From Arthrobacter sp. (GTDB lineage Bacteria > Actinomycetota > Actinomycetes > Actinomycetales > Micrococcaceae), in the NCBI GenBank assembly GCA_035254945.1, contig DATFAE010000022.1, positions 7,691 to 71,690 on the forward strand: a stretch of 64,000 bases of DNA. Reading direction: 5' to 3'. The position numbers and the translations under genes were made by a program. Position 1 is the stretch's first letter, and each line of letters starts with the position of its first letter. This document shows positions 50,460 to 59,044 of the stretch, piece by piece. The notes beneath the pieces are model-generated. The model searched no databases, had not been told where the DNA came from, and worked only from the letters and a program-made list of their open reading frames with translations.

Positions 50460-51728
50460 GTGGCGGCGACGCTGAGCCTTGGACAGGCGCGGCGGATCGC
50501 CCTGGCAGCCCAAGGTCTGGACAAAGGACGGCCCTCCGGCCCCGTGACTTCACGGACGGTGGGCCGTACCTTTGCCCGCCTGCAGCTGGTCCAGATCGAT
50601 TCCGTCAACGTGGTCTCGCGGAGCCACTACCTGCCGTTTTTCTCGCGCCTGGGCAACTACGACCGGAGTATCCTGCAGCGCATGTCCAGCACCCGCCCAC
50701 GGCGCATGATGGAGTATTGGGCGCATGAGGCCAGCTACATCCGGCCGGAGCACTTCCAGGATCTGGTGCAGTGGCAAAAGCGTAAATGGGTCGGGGCCGC
50801 CGCCATGGATCCCGGGCTGCGCGAAGCCGTGGCCGGAAAAATCCTGGCGGTCCTGGCCCGCGGACGGGCCATGACGGCTGCCGAACTGACGGTTGAAATC
50901 GGGCATGTGGAAGACCGCCGGAGTGACAACTGGGGGTGGAACTGGAACGCCGTCAAAAGGGTTCTTGAACATCTGTTTGAAGCGGGCGTCGTTTCCGCAG
51001 CGTCCCGCACGGAACAATTCGAGCGCAGGTACACCCTGACTGCGCGGGTGCTGCCGGACCGGCGGGCCCTGGATGAGGAACGGCGGGACCCCGTAGAGTC
51101 CATGCGCCGCCTGATCGACGCGGCCGCACAGGCCCACGGCATCGGAACCGTGAAGTGCTTCGCTGACTATTTCCGCACGCCGGTCAAGCCCGCTGCCGCC
51201 GCCGTGGAGCATTTGGTAGGCACCGGGCGGCTGACGCCCGTTACTGTTGCGGGCTGGGACAGGGAAGTGTACCTGCACGCTGATGCCCGGACGCCGCGGC
51301 GGGCGGTGGGCCGGGCCCTGCTCAGTCCCTTTGACTCGCTGGTCTTTGAACGCCGCCGGCTGGAAGAACTCTTCGGCTTCCACTACCGCATCGAGATTTA
51401 CACCCCTGAACACCGGCGTCGGTTCGGCTATTACGTCCTGCCGTTCCTGCTGGGGGAAACCCTGGTGGCACGGGTGGATCTTAAGGCCGACCGTGCTGCC
51501 GGACAGTTGCTGGTCCGCTCCGCCTACCGCGAGCCAGGCGCCCCGCCGGGAACCGCCGTCGAACTGGCAGCCGAGCTGGAACTGATGGCTGAGTGGCTGG
51601 GGTTGGGGGACGTTGTGGTCAGCCCGGTAGGGGACCTGGCGGGTGACCTTGCTGCGGCGGTCGGAGCTGGCGGAAGCGCTATCCGCTCTCAGGGAACACA
51701 GGCATCGTGGCCTGTGTCTCTCCCGTAG
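50460..51728 (+). CDS. YcaQ/AlkZ-like (HTH_42) DNA glycosylase
   Basis: [22 protein letters not shown] (QxD), [35 protein letters not shown]. Confidence 0.88.
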
Positions 51729-51774
51729 ACTAAAAACGCCAGAATTCGGCGGCAGAGACTGGGAGCATCTTCAC

Positions 51775-54513
51775 GTGGCATCACTTATCGAAAAACTTCT
51801 CCGTACGGGTGACAAAAAAACCCTCCGGCAACTGCGCAACTATGCCGACTCCATCAATGCCCTCGAAGACTCGTTCAAGACGTTCACTGACGCCGAACTC
51901 CGCGAAGAAACCGACCGCCTCCGGTCACGCCACCAGGACGGCGAAAAGCTGGATGACCTCCTGCCGGAGGCCTTTGCAGCCGTGCGGGAGGCCTCATCCC
52001 GAACCCTGGGCATGCGCCACTTCGATGTCCAGATGATGGGTGGCGCTGCCCTTCACCTGGGCAATATCGCCGAGATGAAGACCGGTGAAGGCAAGACCCT
52101 GGTGGCCACTGCTCCGGCCTACCTCAACGCCCTCACCGGGAACGGCGTCCACGTCATCACCGTGAACGACTACCTCGCCGAATACCAGTCAGACCTGATG
52201 GGCCGTGTTTACCGATTCCTGGGCCTGACCAGCGGATGCATCCTGTCCAACCAGGACCCGTCCGTCCGCCGGGAGCAGTACGCAGCGGACATCACCTACG
52301 GCACCAACAACGAATTCGGCTTCGATTACCTCCGCGACAACATGGCGTGGGACCGCTCAGAGCTGGTCCAGCGCGGCCACCACTTCGCGATCGTGGATGA
52401 GGTTGACTCCATCCTGATCGACGAGGCCCGGACGCCGCTGATCATCTCCGGGCCCGCCCAGGGCGACACCAACCGCTGGTACAGCGAATTCGCCAAAGTA
52501 GTCCTTCGTCTCCAGCCCGAACACGACTACGAGGTTGACGAGAAGAAGCGCACCGTTGGCGTCCTCGAAAGTGGAATCGAAAAGGTTGAAGACTACCTCG
52601 GGATCCAGAACCTGTACGAGTCCGCCAACACCCCGCTCATCGGATTCCTGAACAACGCCATCAAGGCCAAAGAATTGTTCAAGCGCGACAAGGACTACGT
52701 CATCCTGGACGGCGAAGTCCTGATTGTTGACGAACATACCGGACGAATCCTTGCCGGCCGGCGCTACAACGAGGGCATGCACCAGGCAATCGAGGCCAAG
52801 GAAGGCGTCGAGATCAAGGCCGAAAACCAGACGCTGGCCACGGTGACGCTCCAGAACTACTTCCGCATGTACGGCAAGCTCTCCGGCATGACCGGCACCG
52901 CGGAGACCGAAGCCGCCGAGTTCATGGGGACCTACAAGCTCGGTGTTGTTGCGATTCCCACCAACCGCGACATGCAGCGGATCGACCAGTCCGACCTCGT
53001 GTTCAAGAACGAAAAAGTCAAATTCGACGCCGTGGTGAAGGATATTGCCGAACGCCACGAAAAGGGCCAGCCAGTCCTGGTTGGCACCACGAGCGTTGAA
53101 AAGAGCGAATACCTCTCCGGGCTGCTCGCCAAGGAGGGCATCAGGCACGAAGTCCTCAACGCCAAGAACCATGCCCGCGAGGCCGCCATTGTCGCGCAGG
53201 CCGGCCGCAAGGGCGCCGTCACCGTCGCCACGAACATGGCCGGCCGTGGCACCGACATCATGCTGGGCGGCAACGCCGAATTCACCGCTGTCGCCGAGCT
53301 CGCCAAGCGAGGGCTGGACCCGGAGGAGAACTCCGAGGAGTACGAGGCCGCGTGGCCCGCTGCCTTTGAGGCAGCCAAGCAGTCCGTCAAGGACGAACAC
53401 GAGCAAGTGCTGAGCCTCGGCGGCCTCTACGTCCTTGGCACCGAACGTCACGAATCCCGCCGCATCGACAACCAGCTCAGGGGCCGTTCCGGCCGCCAGG
53501 GCGATCCTGGCGAGTCGCGGTTCTATCTTTCCCTGACCGATGACCTGATGCGGCTGTTCAACTCAGGGGCCGCAGAGCGCCTGATGAACAGTTCAGTGCC
53601 CGACGACGTCGCGCTGGAATCCAAGCTGGTGTCCCGTGCCATCGCTTCCGCGCAGGGGCAGGTGGAAGGCCGCAACGCCGAACAGCGCAAGAACGTCCTG
53701 AAATACGACGACGTCCTGAACCGCCAGCGCGAAGCCATCTACGGCGACCGCCGCCGGATCCTGGAAGGCGACGACCTGCACGAAAAGGTGCAGTTCTTTG
53801 TCGAAGACACCATCACGGCCCTCATCGACGCCGCCACGGCTGAGGGCAACGGCGATGACTGGGACTACAACCAGCTGTGGACCAACCTGAAAACCCTGTA
53901 CCCGGTGAGCGTCACTGCGGAGGACATCATCGACGAGGCGGGCGGAAAATCCCGGCTCACGGTCGAGTTCCTCAAGGAAGAGCTCCTCTCCGACGCCAGG
54001 CTGGTGTACCAGGCACGTGAAGAGGCCATCGGCTCCGAAAGCATGCGGGAGCTGGAACGCCGCGTGGTGCTGTCCGTCATCGGGCGCAAGTGGCAGGAAC
54101 ATCTTTATGAGATGGACTACCTGAAGGAAGGCATCGGCCTGCGCGCAATGGCCCAGCGTGACCCGCTCGTGGAGTACCAGCGGGAAGGGTTCACGATGTT
54201 CCAGAGCATGATGGAGGCCATCCGCGAGGAAAGTGTGGGCTTCCTCTTCAACCTCGAAGTGGAGGTCACCCCGGCGCAGGACGTCGTGGTTGCCGACGCC
54301 GCGGGCGGACACACCGAGCACGTAGAACCGCAGATCCGTGCTGCTGGACTGGAGGCGCCGGAGAAGCCCGCGCAGCTGCAGTACACGGCTCCTGGTGAAG
54401 ACGGCGCAAGCCAGACACGCGTTGAAAGCCGTTCTTCAGGCCGTTCGGGCAACCCGGCGAAGGCGGCCGCACAGGACGGTGCCAGGAAGCCTGGCAAGAA
54501 GAAGCGCCGCTGA
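51775..54513 (+). CDS. secA: Preprotein translocase ATPase SecA
   Basis: [48 protein letters not shown]-like, [16 protein letters not shown]; GTG 51775. Confidence 0.97.
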
Positions 54514-54543: not shown

Positions 54544-54581
54544 GGGAAAGGGCCCGGAACCTCGGTTCCGGGCCCTTTCCC
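54544..54581. terminator. Bidirectional terminator between secA and the Rv3235-like gene
   Basis: Perfect 18-bp inverted repeat GGGAAAGGGCCCGGAACC / GGTTCCGGGCCCTTTCCC. Confidence 0.82.
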
Positions 54582-54604: not shown

Positions 54605-55069
54605 TCAGCCGATCACGAGTTCCGTGACACGCCACACCTCCTTGCTTCGTTCCAGCCGGACAGCCACGGCACGTGCCCGGACGTCGTCAACGACAACGGC
54701 ACTGGCTTCGTAGATCCCGGGAGCGGCTTCGCACAGGCGGACTGACCTCACCACGGAGTTCTTGTGCAGCCTCGCCAGCGACGGCGACGATGAGCGGGCA
54801 AGCTCACGCCGGATCAACGACGCCCGATGCTGCAGCGCCGCCAGACAGCGCGGATCCAGGCGGCGCGAAAGCTGCTGGACTGGCCGGATACCTGCCAGGA
54901 CCTCCATGGAAGCCTGGACCGTGCTACGTATGATAGCGAGGACCTCGGCCTTTTCGTCGACGGCCCTGAGGGGGTGGGCAGCAAGTCCCGCCCGGTCCTG
55001 AGCCTGCCGCACGGCCACTGACCGGTTCGAGCCCGGGGCTGCGGGGCGGATAGGTGTTACTGCACTCAT
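54605..55069 (-). CDS. Rv3235 family protein
   Basis: MEVLAGIRPVQQLSR, SVRLC..EASAVV..RARAVAVRLE..WRVTELVIG; RBS AAGGGG. Confidence 0.8.
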   Translation of the reverse strand: MSAVTPIRPAAPGSNRSVAVRQAQDRAGLAAHPLRAVDEKAEVLAIIRSTVQASMEVLAGIRPVQQLSRRLDPRCLAALQHRASLIRRELARSSSPSLARLHKNSVVRSVRLCEAAPGIYEASAVVVDDVRARAVAVRLERSKEVWRVTELVIG

Positions 55070-55110
55070 GGTTTCCCCTTAGTTGTTGATGCTGCCCGTT
55101 TTTCCGACAG

Positions 55111-55920
55111 CTAGGCCGCAGCCGGTGGTTTCAGAAGTTGACCCGGAAGCAGGACATCCGGGTTGTGGCCAATTGCGGCCTTGTTGGCCTGGTACCAGCG
55201 CGGCCAGTGCAACGCCACTTCGACATCCGAGGCTCCCGGTCCCAGGTCCCTGGCCGCGATGTCCCAGAGGGTGTCGCCGGCGAGGACGGTGACCTCTGCC
55301 GGGGCCGCCGTTTGCGCTTGCCCGGCGCGTACAGGCCAGGCAACCGTGAGGCCCGGATCGGTTACCGGGGTACTCGGCCGCCAGTTCGGCTCCAACCCCG
55401 ACATTGGACCCTGATCCTCCAAAGCAGAATCGGCAGCGTCACTGCTTAAGGCACCATCAATTCCAAATGTGGCGGAAGTGCCGCCCGTGGGCACCCACGC
55501 GGCTGGGACCGGGACGGCTGTGGTGGGACCCCAGCCCGGTCCGGAGGCTGGTTCAGCGGCCTGGGCAAGTGGGCCGGAAACGAGCTGGACGGACAGCACA
55601 GCCAGCGCCAGGCGGCGCATGAATGAGGGACAGAACTTTCCGGCAGCGGCGGCCGCGCGTTGCTTCCCTGTCCGTTCCAGGACTGCTGAGAGAAAAGCGC
55701 AGGACATGGAGACAGCCCACCAGGCGGTGAGTGCCAGACCTGCCGTACTTATGGCAGCTCCCAGAAGGTGGTCGAAATCAGGAGCTTGCTTCCCGGGGGC
55801 TGTCAGTATCCATGGTTTCGTGAATCCAAGCCCCGCAGCCCCAAGGGAGCCGCCCAGAACCAGGATGGCTGCGGTCATGGCGGCGTCGGAGCCGGCCATC
55901 CCCTTCCCAGGTGCCGCCAT
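55111..55920 (-). CDS. Membrane-anchored LysM domain protein
   Basis: N-terminal hydrophobic helices, Pro/Ala linker, VTVLAGDTLWDIAA..WYQAN..IGHNPDVLLPGQLL; RBS GGAGAAGG before ATG 55920. Confidence 0.82.
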   Translation of the reverse strand: MAAPGKGMAGSDAAMTAAILVLGGSLGAAGLGFTKPWILTAPGKQAPDFDHLLGAAISTAGLALTAWWAVSMSCAFLSAVLERTGKQRAAAAAGKFCPSFMRRLALAVLSVQLVSGPLAQAAEPASGPGWGPTTAVPVPAAWVPTGGTSATFGIDGALSSDAADSALEDQGPMSGLEPNWRPSTPVTDPGLTVAWPVRAGQAQTAAPAEVTVLAGDTLWDIAARDLGPGASDVEVALHWPRWYQANKAAIGHNPDVLLPGQLLKPPAAA

Positions 55921-55934
55921 TGCCTTCTCCGTTC

Positions 55935-56002
55935 CGTTTGATGCTGTTTGATAGACTTTGATGCAATTAATGACAGTTTGCACTGCATTTATAATTTTTG
56001 TC
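55935..56002. repeat. 10-bp phased AT-rich direct-repeat array (TTTGAT core)
   Basis: TTTGATGC 55937, TTTGATAG 55947, TTTGATGC 55957, degenerate units near 55967, 55977, 55987, 55997. Confidence 0.8.
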
Positions 56003-56064
56003 CAGACGTTGGAGAGAATTGGTTGTGAATTGACCGGGCGTCACGGGCGCCCTACGCTGGCCGA

Positions 56065-56637
56065 ATGCGTTGGGATGAACTCTTCAATGACATGGAAGCG
56101 CAGTTTGCTGAAGGCGGCAGGCTGGCCATGGAAGCCGAAATTTCGGAACGCGCAAGGGCGGACACTGCTGGACTCCTGCTGGCAGACCGCCTGCGTGGAT
56201 CCTTGGGCACGCTGGTGAAGGTGCATCTTGTATCCGGCGCGGTCTTCGAAGGGACCCTGACTTATACGGGCGCCGATGCGTTGGTCCTGAATGACAAGCG
56301 CCACCAGGTGCTGGTTCCCCACGGCGCCGTACTGAGGTACGCCGGATTGGGGCGTTTCTCGGTCGACGAGCCCTCAGTTGTGCGGAGCAGCATGGGGCTG
56401 TCGAATGCCCTTCGAGCCCTGGCCCGGGACCGGTCCGAACTGACGGTCATCCTCAGGGGCGCGGACGTGCGGGACTCCGGGGTGACCGGAGTCATCGATA
56501 GGGTGGGCCGGGACTACTTCGACCTGGCTGCGGTGCGGCCCGGTGAAGCGCGACGTGCCCTGCACGTGGGCCAGGTGTCCACGATTCCGTTTTCCGCGCT
56601 CGCCGCGATCAGGTCACCAATCACAGGCGACCTGTAG
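56065..56637 (+). CDS. Hypothetical protein with two Sm/Hfq-like repeats
   Basis: MRWDELFNDMEAQ N-terminus, internal repeat of L.G..G.l..vG.D.l.L..v.vP..A; TACGCT -10 six nt before ATG. Confidence 0.7.
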   Translation: MRWDELFNDMEAQFAEGGRLAMEAEISERARADTAGLLLADRLRGSLGTLVKVHLVSGAVFEGTLTYTGADALVLNDKRHQVLVPHGAVLRYAGLGRFSVDEPSVVRSSMGLSNALRALARDRSELTVILRGADVRDSGVTGVIDRVGRDYFDLAAVRPGEARRALHVGQVSTIPFSALAAIRSPITGDL

Positions 56638-56666
56638 CCGCCGGAGCTTGGCGGCCGGCAGGGCCT

Positions 56667-56882
56667 TCAGATTGATTTGGACTTGGATTCCTGGATCATC
56701 CGGCTCGCCTCGGCATAGCGCTCCTCGATGTACTGCTCCAGCATTTTCTCCTCGACGCGCCACTGGCCGCGCCCGCCAACCTGGATGGCTTTAAGCTCGC
56801 CGCTGCGGACCAGAGCATAGGCCGCCGGCGAGTTGATCTGAAGCTGCTCTGCGACGTCTGCAAGGGTCAGGAATCTGGGCAT
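56667..56882 (-). CDS. Small HTH_17 (Xis/BldC-like, MerR-type wHTH) DNA-binding protein
   Basis: MPRFLTLADVAEQLQI..AYALVRSGELKAIQVGGRGQWRV; CAAAAT -10 six nt before ATG 56882. Confidence 0.85.
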   Translation of the reverse strand: MPRFLTLADVAEQLQINSPAAYALVRSGELKAIQVGGRGQWRVEEKMLEQYIEERYAEASRMIQESKSKSI

Positions 56883-56907
56883 AACCCTATTTTGCCACTC
56901 CAGAGCC

Positions 56908-56955
56908 CATATGATGCGGTTATCCACAATTTGATGCCGTTTATCATTTTGACTT
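56908..56955. promoter_or_regulatory. Second 10-bp phased array containing a perfect DnaA box
   Basis: TATGATGC 56910, TTATCCACA 56920, TTTGATGC 56930, TTTATCAT 56940, TTTGAC 56948. Confidence 0.7.
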
Positions 56956-57038
56956 CCGGTTCCGGCGTCCATGCCGTAACAATGAGGTTGTCCGGGTGCG
57001 GCCAACCGTCCCGGTGCGGAGCGAGGGGGAGACTGCGC

Positions 57039-57683
57039 GTGAGTTTTGGTGGAGAATCTGCAGCGGCGAGGCTGAAGCGGCCGTCCTGGAAGGATCCGCG
57101 GCTGCTCGTGGGAATACTCCTTGTCCTTGCGTCCGTGGCGGGGGTTATTTCCCTGGTAGGCAGCGCCGACAGGACCACCGAGGTCTATGCGGCCCGCGAT
57201 GCCATTGCGGTGGGCGAAACGCTGACGGAGGACAACGTGGTCCGCGCCAAAGTGCGGCTGGGTGACACCGAGCAGCACTACATCACGGTCGAGGCCGGCC
57301 TGCCTGAAGGTGTCGTGGCCGTCCAAAGAATCGGCAAGGACCAATTGGTCCCGCGGGAAAGCCTGGGCAGCGTGGATGCCCTGGACCGCAAGCCCGTCGC
57401 AGTGGCCGTCGAGGAGGCACTCCCAAGCCAGGTTGTTGACGGCACGCGGGTGGACGTCTGGGTTGCCATGCCAGATGCGAAGAACGGATTCAGCGAACCG
57501 AAACTACTCCTTCCAGGCGCCGAAATAGCGCAGATCACGTCCGGATCCACAACGTTGGGCTCGTCGCGAAGCACCGTGCTGATGATCCTGGTGTCGGACA
57601 GCCAAATGCCGGCACTCCTGGGCGCACAGGCTAACCAGGCCAAGATCTCCGTGGTCTGGAGTCCCGGCGGGGCCGCTTCGTGA
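57039..57683 (+). CDS. SAF-domain / CpaB(RcpC)-like protein
   Basis: RLKRPSWKDPRLLVGILLV TM helix, YAARDAIAVGETL, GTRVDVWV; RBS GGGGGAG before GTG 57039. Confidence 0.75.
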   Translation: MSFGGESAAARLKRPSWKDPRLLVGILLVLASVAGVISLVGSADRTTEVYAARDAIAVGETLTEDNVVRAKVRLGDTEQHYITVEAGLPEGVVAVQRIGKDQLVPRESLGSVDALDRKPVAVAVEEALPSQVVDGTRVDVWVAMPDAKNGFSEPKLLLPGAEIAQITSGSTTLGSSRSTVLMILVSDSQMPALLGAQANQAKISVVWSPGGAAS

Positions 57684-58987
57684 GCATCCCGGTGGTAACC
57701 GTCGGTGAGGCCCAGGAAGATGTAGTGGGCGGCCTTGAACGGTTGCACGGCCCTGTCACCGTGGTCCGCAGGTGCGCCGAACTCGCAGAGTTGCTGGCAG
57801 CCTGCCAGAGCGGACTGGCCCGTGCAGCGGTGATTGCAGACGGATGTGAGGGATTGACCGCTTCCCTTGTTGACAGGCTCGGCGCGGTCGGTGTGGCCAT
57901 CATTGCCCTCACAGACAACCCGGTCGAAGCATCCCGGCTCCGTGGGATCGGTGTTGCGTCGGCGTTGTCGGGCGTTGAGTCCGCAGCCCTGGCCGCAAGG
58001 ATATCTGAGGCCGTTGGCCAGCTTGCGGGTTCCGGTCAGCCCGGCAGTCCGGCAGCTGGCCTGGCCGATCCCTCCGCCGCCTTAAGGCCCGTGGCCGCCG
58101 CACCCGAGGACGTCCCGGTGGCTTCCGGTACGGGCACCGTCATTGCGGTCTGGGGCCCGGCGGGGTCCCCGGGGCGGACGTTCGTGGCAGCGAATATGGC
58201 GGGGGAGCTGGCGGCGGAGGGGAAGTCCGTCCTCCTGATTGATGCCGACAGCTATGGGGCCAGCATTGCAGCCGTCCTTGGCCTGCTGGATGAAGCGGCC
58301 GGGCTGGCCCAGGCCTGCAGGCTTGCGGACCAAGGTGTGCTGGACGCCGACGCAATGCTCAGGGTAACCGCTACAGTGGCAACCAAACTGGGCACCTTCC
58401 GGGTCCTGACCGGCATCACCCGGGCGGACAGATGGACCGAACTCCGGGCGGCAGCGCTGTCACTGGTAGTGGAGCGCGGGCGCGAAATTGCCGATGTGGT
58501 GGTCATTGATACCGGATTCTGCCTTGAGGCGGACGAAGAGCTCAGCTTCGACACCATGGCCCCGCGGCGCAATGCGGCCACGCTGCGCAGCCTGGAGTTG
58601 GCAGACACTGTCTTTGCCATTGGCTCGGCAGATCCTATCGGCGTTCCGCGGCTGGTCCGTGGCCTGACTGAACTTGAGCTTGCCGTCCCGCATGTCACTC
58701 CGATTGTCGTGCTTAACAAGGTGCGCGCCGGCGCGGTGGGCAGGTCACCAGAACGACAATTGCGCGACGCATGGGAACGGTACGGACCCGCCGCAGGAAT
58801 TAATGCGTTTCTGCCGGCGGACGGGCCCGCCGCCGATTCGGCCCTGCTCGGCGGCTCCCTGCTGCTTGAATCTTCCCCCGACTCGAAGCTAAGGACCGCA
58901 ATCGCACAATTGGTCTGTGCATCCGTCCAGCAAAAACCTGCATCCTCTGTATTTTCTTCCACACCGAGGCGTCGGCTAAAGGGTTAG
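57680..58987 (+). CDS. CpaE/TadZ-MinD-like ATPase with N-terminal receiver-like domain
   Basis: Deviant Walker A WGPAGSPGRT, VLLIDADSYG, VVIDTGF, VVLNKVR; GTGA overlap with the SAF gene. Confidence 0.82.
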   Translation: MSIPVVTVGEAQEDVVGGLERLHGPVTVVRRCAELAELLAACQSGLARAAVIADGCEGLTASLVDRLGAVGVAIIALTDNPVEASRLRGIGVASALSGVESAALAARISEAVGQLAGSGQPGSPAAGLADPSAALRPVAAAPEDVPVASGTGTVIAVWGPAGSPGRTFVAANMAGELAAEGKSVLLIDADSYGASIAAVLGLLDEAAGLAQACRLADQGVLDADAMLRVTATVATKLGTFRVLTGITRADRWTELRAAALSLVVERGREIADVVVIDTGFCLEADEELSFDTMAPRRNAATLRSLELADTVFAIGSADPIGVPRLVRGLTELELAVPHVTPIVVLNKVRAGAVGRSPERQLRDAWERYGPAAGINAFLPADGPAADSALLGGSLLLESSPDSKLRTAIAQLVCASVQQKPASSVFSSTPRRRLKG

Positions 58988-59044
58988 GCTCACCATAGGA
59001 GCTGCAAAGGTGCAGCATTAATCTTGTGATGGAGGCGTTTGCAG

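Follow-up and report, generated by a model that had tools for sequence, protein, structure and literature searches.

We analysed a 64-kb stretch of an Arthrobacter sp. genome (the window; coordinates count from its first nucleotide) in which six genes lie between secA (51643-54513) and gdh, a gene that starts at 59039 and encodes a 1619-aa NAD-glutamate dehydrogenase. A first-pass annotation had described these genes as a candidate undescribed surface/division system; we argue below that most of them probably belong with DNA uptake. The open reading frame (ORF) map and the Pfam and NCBIfam domain scans recovered all six where that annotation had placed them, including a winged helix-turn-helix (wHTH) gene and a 190-aa hypothetical that we call hyp190, and its boundaries also held: a 17-bp-stem hairpin past secA on one side and gdh on the other. 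The features are as follows.

54544-54581, no strand: hairpin with a 17-bp stem and no T-run, between the convergent secA and DUF6459 genes, read from the sequence
54605-55069, minus strand: gene for a DUF6459 (Rv3235-like) protein (Pfam PF20060, 95.8 bits against a 27-bit cut-off)
55111-55920, minus strand: gene for a membrane protein with a divergent C-terminal LysM domain (NCBIfam LysM, E 1.2e-4)
55937-56002, plus strand: direct-repeat array in 10-bp phase, upstream of the LysM gene
56030-56058, plus strand: putative sigma-A-type promoter of hyp190 (from the sequence and the same layout in family loci)
56065-56637, plus strand: hyp190, 190 aa, no annotation (AlphaFold2 model, Foldseek, profile search)
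56667-56882, minus strand: wHTH gene, 71 aa, Xis/HTH_17 type (Pfam HTH_17, TIGR01764)
56910-56955, plus strand: putative divergent promoter region of the wHTH and SAF genes (from sequence and conservation)
57039-57683, plus strand: gene for a SAF-domain protein (weak SAF match)
57680-58987, plus strand: gene for a MinD/ParA-superfamily P-loop protein (CpaE-like), 435 aa (Pfam CbiA, ParA)
59001-59016, plus strand: terminator-like hairpin after the CpaE-like gene, directly before gdh

The hairpin at 54544-54581 is likely a bidirectional terminator. The DUF6459 gene lies on the same strand as the LysM gene and 41 nt downstream of it, and the SAF stop overlaps the CpaE-like start by 4 bp. Both divergent spacers are AT-rich, as had been noted (GC 0.495 and 0.55, compared with ~0.65 elsewhere). 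The stops of hyp190 and the wHTH gene converge 29 nt apart (56638-56666), with a short GCCGCC/GGCGGC hairpin that is a possible shared terminator. An Rfam scan of the module gave nothing above noise. A generic promoter scan of the module found no promoter, so the promoters described here were read from conservation. The first-pass annotation was also correct that the 64-kb window holds no cpaF, tadB/C or flp gene. Tad loci lie elsewhere in the genome, on contigs C256 and C139, the second of these tadABC sets (C139) being without a TadZ-like gene; an extra T2SSE ATPase match lies on C26 and a CpaB gene on C84.

Proteins of the module

The LysM gene, whose longest ORF reaches 55983, likely starts at the ATG at 55920. 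Its product has about three hydrophobic segments (a three-transmembrane protein), and the divergent LysM domain at its C terminus was matched by the NCBIfam model over residues 226-288 and only partially by Pfam (19.7 bits, compared with a cut-off of 20.9).

The AlphaFold2 model of hyp190 (predicted local distance difference test score, pLDDT, 87.5) shows a long N-terminal helix followed by two Sm folds, each a helix plus five strands. A Foldseek search with this model returned Hfq/Lsm chains (TM-scores of 0.7-0.84 by target), the structural neighbours in Atlas were Hfq and DUF2642, and the family profile gave 18 weak matches in PDB, 14 of them Hfq chains (E 0.009-1.7, the best at 0.009). There was no Pfam Hfq match. 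hyp190 is thus predicted by its model to fold as a tandem Sm/Hfq-like protein, and the earlier "tandem-Sm" call is borne out at fold level only (an N-terminal helix and a five-stranded bent sheet, twice). To our knowledge, the phylum is thought to lack Hfq, a long-standing absence on which a conserved tandem Sm/Hfq-like protein in this module bears. Its promoter reads TTGACC, 17 nt, TACGCT, 6 nt, ATG, with the same layout across the family loci, and since only 6 nt separate TACGCT from the ATG, the hyp190 mRNA would be leaderless. A conserved TGTCCAG in the LysM-hyp190 spacer was considered as a degenerate copy of the promoter box described below; it fits better, on the other strand (TGGACA), as the -35 of a putative LysM promoter.

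In the right half of the module, the wHTH protein scored 48.1 bits with Pfam HTH_17 (cut-off 27 bits) and 34.5 bits with TIGR01764 (cut-off 28.8), and the window's protein is 48-96% identical to its counterparts in 22 loci from several families. Among solved structures, the closest relative is the excisionase (Xis) Gp37 of mycobacteriophage Pukovnik (4j2n, E 0.002), reached by profile search of PDB only; phmmer against PDB gave no match. Because the profile search returned no BldC chain, we replaced the BldC-like label that the protein had been given with an Xis/HTH_17-like one.

The SAF gene likely starts at the GTG at 57039, which is preceded by a GGGGGAG ribosome-binding site; its longest ORF runs from 56892. 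The product has an N-terminal transmembrane helix and a weak SAF match (19.9 bits). The CpaE-like protein has a C-terminal MinD/ParA domain, and its family profile matches FleN, MinD and Soj in PDB; its N-terminal domain of ~150 aa, at the place where TadZ/CpaE has an atypical receiver-like domain, is conserved in our ortholog alignment (A1) and has no Pfam match. In the P-loop, WGPxGAPGR[TS], an arginine (R166) replaces the Walker lysine in 23 of 25 orthologs and the loop is one residue longer than the canonical one, while the DxD and Walker B aspartates are retained. Given the arginine and the longer loop, catalysis appears doubtful from the sequence, and nucleotide binding plausible. In three genomes (G030, at locus L059, G053 and G032), the CpaE-like frame carries one in-frame stop and may be decaying; the wHTH gene of G030 is also relocated.

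Conservation, gene loss and the Micrococcus luteus locus

Searches for the CpaE-like protein gave matches in 36 of 38 Micrococcaceae genera sampled, at a single locus in all matched genomes except one, and in 82 of 102 sampled genera of the class. (The class tally takes in the unpublished genomes G065, G090, G094 and G101, which enter no other claim.) All 40 family loci, and most of 20 loci of other families, show the gene order secA-DUF6459-LysM-hyp190-wHTH-SAF-CpaE(-gdh), so that co-occurrence, which the first-pass annotation had proposed to check in Micrococcales, extends far beyond that order. When public genomes were scanned for the pattern, at least 589 loci came up, with Arthrobacter, Pseudarthrobacter, Kocuria, Rothia, Sinomonas, Modestobacter, Dermatophilaceae and Frankiales included; by its closest relatives, the window belongs to Pseudarthrobacter or Arthrobacter. 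One locus (L151) came from a contig titled Vibrio cholerae strain 35D (WNZI01000011.1); this 77-kb contig, on which the protein is 57% identical to our query, is most likely a contaminant of the V. cholerae assembly.

About ten Micrococcaceae genera lack the wHTH gene at the locus. In all five searched genomes without a local copy, a copy 52-61% identical was found elsewhere, and its flanks showed no homology to the wHTH paralog locus of the Arthrobacter genome. Most forks remain open in a tree of wHTH homologs (69 columns), which did not sort the relocated copies into orthologs and paralogs.

The module is also linked to one of the two Tad motors. In many genomes, the contig with the CpaE-like gene also carries a tadA of the C139 type, 13-66 kb further downstream (113 kb in one), and in two other families the distance is 5.6-8 kb. 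The two are not adjacent here, with gdh next to the CpaE-like gene and tadA on another contig. As far as gene positions go, these distances fit an ancestral operon split by insertions.

Loss of the module follows the same link. In two genera (g3 and g15; four genomes, 95-99% complete) we found no match for the CpaE-like protein, hyp190 or wHTH, and in the three of these genomes sampled for it there was no match for C139-type tadA. In these genera gdh abuts a LysM remnant or the DUF6459 gene next to secA, and the repeat array is absent. DUF6459 was retained in four of four genomes, and comEA and recA were each found in the three sampled. A control search found DUF6459 in Corynebacterium as well. 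The co-loss represents at most two independent events. As g3 and g15 lost hyp190, wHTH, the CpaE-like protein and this tadA type yet kept DUF6459, these data point to a working unit of four or five genes, namely hyp190, wHTH, SAF and CpaE-like, together with tadABC and possibly LysM. DUF6459 is probably a secA-linked neighbor outside that unit, and the six-gene functional unit first proposed does not stand, as DUF6459 stays where the others are lost.

Part of this locus has been reached genetically in Micrococcus luteus. In a chemical-mutagenesis screen, the densest cluster of single-nucleotide polymorphisms (SNPs) covered Mlut_14660 (HTH_17), a spacer and Mlut_14650 (SAF), the latter in an operon with Mlut_14640 (TadZ/CpaE-like) (PMC8467076). 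Single SNPs in the cluster raise comEA/EC promoter activity, and the SAF substitution G27D abolishes transformation (PMC8467076). A clean SAF deletion is viable and lowers transformation 10^4-fold, while the HTH gene could not be deleted (PMC8467076). That study (Torasso Kasem et al. 2021, "cluster 13") proposes transcriptional interference, and it had already noted synteny of the cluster in other Actinobacteria, including the neighbor Mlut_14670 (PMC8467076), which is probably the counterpart of hyp190. Two Tad clusters are required for transformation of M. luteus, a species that had earlier been described as lacking TadZ (PMC4322843). A Micrococcus-like locus in our set (L065) carries the mutated residues, S27, S46 and R64 in wHTH and G27 and V31 in the transmembrane helix of SAF, and because it holds all five, we consider the wHTH, SAF and CpaE-like genes orthologs of Mlut_14660/50/40. 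In the later literature, we found no mention of these M. luteus genes.

The system can therefore no longer be called undescribed, since three of its six genes and their synteny were already in the literature (PMC8467076). Compared with the literature searched, the new points are the putative phased operator, a promoter box that is identical to the DnaA box and common to the module, tadA, comEA and recA, the predicted Sm/Hfq-like fold of hyp190 and the co-loss pattern.

Two cis-elements in the divergent spacers

The array upstream of the LysM gene begins 17 nt from the start codon and consists of TTTGATGC (55937), TTTGATAG (55947), TTTGATGC (55957) and then degenerate TTTG units. A third TTTGATGC stands at 56930 in the wHTH-SAF spacer, and the window holds 6 copies compared with 1.5 expected. 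The pattern TTTGAY-N4-TTTGAY occurs once in the 4.35-Mb genome; in 1.18 Mb of loci, 39 of its 43 occurrences fall inside the two spacers. Distances between TTTG pairs in 39 family loci were 10, 20, 30 and 40 bp (57, 33, 11 and 8 pairs), with almost none between. The array is conserved across the family, and a GTTTGC-N4-GTTTGC counterpart is found in other families.

The first-pass annotation had read TTTGATGC as one octamer repeated at 20-bp spacing in both spacers and shared by four promoters. The spacing is exact for the first pair (55937/55957), while the second pair has one mismatch (TATGATGC at 56910). Conservation splits in the same way: it is family-wide and in strict 10-bp phase in the first spacer, whereas units in the second are kept only in the Arthrobacter group. 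Strict TTTGAY pairs were present in the wHTH-SAF spacer of five loci, all with a local wHTH gene, and in none without one. Instead of one shared operator, we found two different cis-elements, the TTTGAY array and a TCCACA box.

Proteins of the BldC and Xis type line up head to tail on direct repeats (PMC5859096), and by analogy wHTH may bind the array. We also considered an effect at the RNA level, in which hyp190 would control translation by binding the repeats as AUCAAA units of the LysM 5' leader. The divergently encoded hyp190 has two predicted Hfq-like domains, and the repeats are found 17-45 nt ahead of the LysM start codon and shortly before the ribosome-binding site, where they form A-rich CAUCAAA units on the LysM strand. 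The distal faces of Hfq prefer A-rich motifs such as CAUCAAA-type units. Against this, exact 10-nt spacing over up to four turns suits one face of the DNA helix, while an Sm ring reads triplets; the region matches no Rfam family; and transcription of the repeats depends on where the LysM promoter is placed from sequence. We consider control at the RNA level very unlikely.

The second element lies in the wHTH-SAF spacer, which carries TATGATGC (56910), the DnaA-box-identical TTATCCACA (56920-56928), TTTGATGC (56930), TTTATCAT (56940) and TTTGAC (56948). What is conserved in this spacer is T(T)RTCCACA(G), which most family and class loci carry and which persists in loci without the wHTH gene. 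In family loci, TCCACA is found upstream of C139-type tadA (28/30), comEA (24/30) and recA (23/30), compared with a chance expectation of ~2/30 calculated from the 6-mer density in the loci. Box and TAnnnT are most often 37-41 nt apart (25 pairings for tadA, 14 for SAF, 10 for comEA and 20 for recA). In the SAF promoter of wHTH-less genera, the box is exactly 39 nt from the -10, while in the Arthrobacter group TTTGAY units lie between the two and the -10 is at 48-50 nt rather than ~39, one helical turn further. Relocated wHTH copies stand behind box-N38-40 promoters, one of them with TCCACA-N2-TTTGAT as in the window. Within the Arthrobacter genome, the same layout precedes tadA, recA, comEA, the C84 cpaB gene, the rpsF operon, a WXG100 gene, an EssC-like gene, dnaA and a multi-copy gene family. 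Since the SAF, tadA, comEA and recA promoters all carry gTTRTCCACAg at a constant distance ahead of the -10, the pattern places the SAF-CpaE-like operon in one regulon with genes for the pilus motor, the DNA receptor and channel, and the recombinase.

Upstream of recA (C207:6415-6540; also L258-L287), a LexA SOS box is followed by TTATCCACA and then by 38-39 nt that include a PafBC-type TGTCAGTG-N8-TAGCGT, and this box layout is kept in 20 of 30 Micrococcaceae. We rejected the idea that the recA box is part of a PafBC -26 element, as TGTCAGTG-N8-TAGCGT occurs at recA and not at tadA or comEA. The comEA gene (C279, L227) appears leaderless (TAGCGT, 6 nt, ATG), and its box overlaps the stop of an upstream DegV-like gene. 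The EssC-like gene (C22:74142-78340, ~10-14 kb past the window end; L011:3143-7252, minus strand) encodes a 1369-aa protein with FHA and FtsK/SpoIIIE domains behind gTTATCCACA-N39-TAGCGT, and a promoter of this type also precedes the WXG100 gene on C226, so the box seems to extend to type VII secretion genes. The multi-copy family has at least seven copies (C74:6093, C207:25007, C240:11714, C326:214, C178:19486, C15:4008 and C271:3554), whose proteins start MGSGAGVDSVEAMMAS and each of which stands behind gTTATCCACAtag-N36-GATGAT-N6-ATG, with the same box-to-start layout. Clusters of 5-13 DnaA-type boxes were also seen outside oriC, at C28:10373-11092 (before a DnaB-like gene), C191:9838-11285 and C241:26665-27044.

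We considered wHTH as the reader of the box and lowered this candidate, as genus g15, with no wHTH homolog at E 1e-6, keeps the box-N39 layout at recA and comEA (as TCCACG). Because the layout is kept there without wHTH, the box is probably read by another factor, either DnaA or a protein of the same specificity. That DnaA itself is the reader, so that the status of the replication initiator would switch the module, competence, the pilus and recA while wHTH only fine-tunes, is a tentative idea on the doubtful side. The box consensus gTTRTCCACAg of tadA and SAF equals the boxes at oriC (the dnaA-dnaN spacer, C278) and upstream of dnaB, flanks included; the dnaA promoter itself has the layout box-N37-TAGAGT; and the g15 pattern is what a reader other than wHTH would leave. 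However, in the competence literature searched, we found no experiment tying DnaA to competence in Actinobacteria, and the M. luteus genetic changes that raise comEA/EC expression map only to the wHTH locus. Genus g3 has lost the recA box along with the module. The pattern would also look the same if the reader were a regulator that imitates DnaA-box specificity, as Spo0A of Bacillus partly does. The further step, in which a DnaA-read box ~39 nt before the -10 would be the master switch of an actinobacterial competence, Tad and recombination regulon and the module would supply its modulators (an array-coating wHTH and a tandem Hfq-like protein), is unlikely in our estimation; if true, it would couple DNA uptake to replication status.

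A competence reading of the module and its comparison with known systems

Taken together, these data are best explained, with fair but not high probability, if the core (hyp190, wHTH, SAF, CpaE-like and probably LysM) represents the front part, now detached, of a system for Tad pili and competence under a shared promoter box. The DNA-uptake half of the earlier proposal is supported by the genetics of the orthologous M. luteus locus (PMC8467076) and by the box shared with tadA, comEA and recA. In this model, two proteins on opposite sides of the membrane, SAF on the outside and the P-loop protein in the cytoplasm, would act as CpaB/TadZ-like assembly or positioning factors for the C139 Tad machine. 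wHTH would coat the 10-bp-phased TTTGAY array before the LysM gene head to tail, in the manner of Xis and BldC filaments, with the TTTGAY units between box and SAF -10 as further binding sites in the Arthrobacter group. Such binding would damp the module and, indirectly, the competence genes, while the box would be read by DnaA or a protein of the same specificity and not by wHTH.

Several observations weigh against this reading. The SAF protein has no RcpC (PF16976) match and no TIGR03177/CpaB equivalog match, and the CpaE-like protein reached only 35.7 bits with the Ssd equivalog (TIGR03815), whose cut-off is 154.45; these failures count against the CpaB- and TadZ-like roles, which are suggested by sequence features of the two proteins. 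The genome also encodes better matches to both models. The C84 protein has SAF and RcpC domains and scores 70.2 bits with the CpaB equivalog, just below its 71-bit cut-off, and the true Ssd (333.6 bits) precedes tadA-tadB-tadC on contig C256. Binding of wHTH to the array is argued from analogy and co-location, and the array persists in the ten genera with a relocated wHTH. M. luteus-type loci have no TTTGAY pairs in the wHTH-SAF spacer, and for this reason the action of wHTH on the SAF promoter may hold only for the Arthrobacter group. The box regulon is wider than competence, taking in type VII secretion genes, dnaA and the multi-copy family. Finally, class-level co-occurrence with T2SSE ATPases is uninformative, as 150 of 151 class genomes have one.

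The first-pass annotation had also offered control of the division site, with an Ssd-like ATPase and a LysM protein that marks the septum. The CpaE-like protein does belong to the MinD/ParA superfamily, with FleN, MinD and Soj among its PDB profile matches, its best (weak) NCBIfam match is the Ssd model, and the failure to delete the M. luteus wHTH gene hints at a role beyond competence. However, its score falls far below the Ssd cut-off, and the true Ssd stands beside tadA in the C256 Tad locus. Two genera do without hyp190, wHTH and the CpaE-like protein, the operon box is common to pilus and DNA-uptake genes and not to division genes, and the M. luteus SAF knockout is viable and transformation-defective. 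We regard a septum-placement system as highly improbable, and division-site control as unsupported. What remains of the surface/division proposal is a real, deeply conserved module with cis-elements and a link to DNA uptake; its novelty, its division role and its six-gene extent do not.

It is also quite unlikely that ancient synteny beside secA alone holds the six genes together, without a common function. Such an account would fit the independence of DUF6459, which is retained when the others are lost and occurs in Corynebacterium, and the difference between the cis-element of the LysM gene and that of the SAF operon. It would not explain why hyp190, wHTH, SAF/CpaE-like and an unlinked tadA were lost together in two genera, why a promoter box ties the right half to tadA and comEA, or why the Arthrobacter group has TTTGAY units in both spacers.

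Control of competence in Actinobacteria is almost unknown, and its sole genetic entry point is the M. luteus wHTH/SAF/CpaE locus, whose mechanism is unexplained. A locus that is near-universal in the family, widespread in the class, tied to one Tad motor operon both physically and in evolution, and furnished with a fixed-position promoter box that tadA, comEA and recA also carry gives concrete operators and candidate readers to work with. For annotation, the labels "CpaE/Ssd" and "CpaB" should not be taken here to imply division proteins or canonical pilus proteins.

The closest known system is M. luteus cluster 13, from the same bacterial family, in which the wHTH, SAF and CpaE-like genes share the divergent arrangement seen here. 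There the CpaE-like gene is followed by a PAS sensor kinase rather than by gdh. The M. luteus paper describes no promoter box, phased array or Sm-like fold, and it proposes interference rather than shared operators. The TadZ/CpaE and RcpC/CpaB pair of Aggregatibacter and Caulobacter likewise consists of a membrane-anchored SAF protein followed by a MinD/ParA protein with an extra N-terminal domain, and it is genetically tied to a Tad-pilus-dependent process (here through the M. luteus SAF deletion). The window pair differs in lying kilobases to tens of kilobases from tadA/B/C, in a SAF protein that lacks the RcpC match, in the arginine and extra residue of the P-loop and in the existence of a separate, better-matching CpaB on C84; it also has no secretin, as expected of a Gram-positive cell. 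Ssd (Rv3660c, TIGR03815) of M. tuberculosis is likewise MinD-like and actinobacterial, has a degenerate P-loop and is encoded at the start of a Tad locus, whereas the window protein fails the Ssd model and the true Ssd of this genome sits on C256 beside tadA/B/C.

BldC of Streptomyces and the excisionases (lambda Xis, Pukovnik Gp37, RdfS) are, like the window's wHTH, single-domain wHTH proteins of ~70 aa. The wHTH gene also stands beside direct repeats spaced by one helical turn, the type of site that such proteins coat head to tail (PMC5859096) and that is known here from sequence; unlike them, it is no BldC ortholog by sequence and has no integrase partner. The box, finally, resembles the ComK K-boxes of Bacillus, the ComX cin-box of streptococci and the CRP-S sites of Haemophilus in being a short element, at a fixed distance from the -10, that precedes pilus, comEA/EC and recA genes. 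It differs from them in being identical to the DnaA box, and its regulon adds type VII secretion genes and a multi-copy family.

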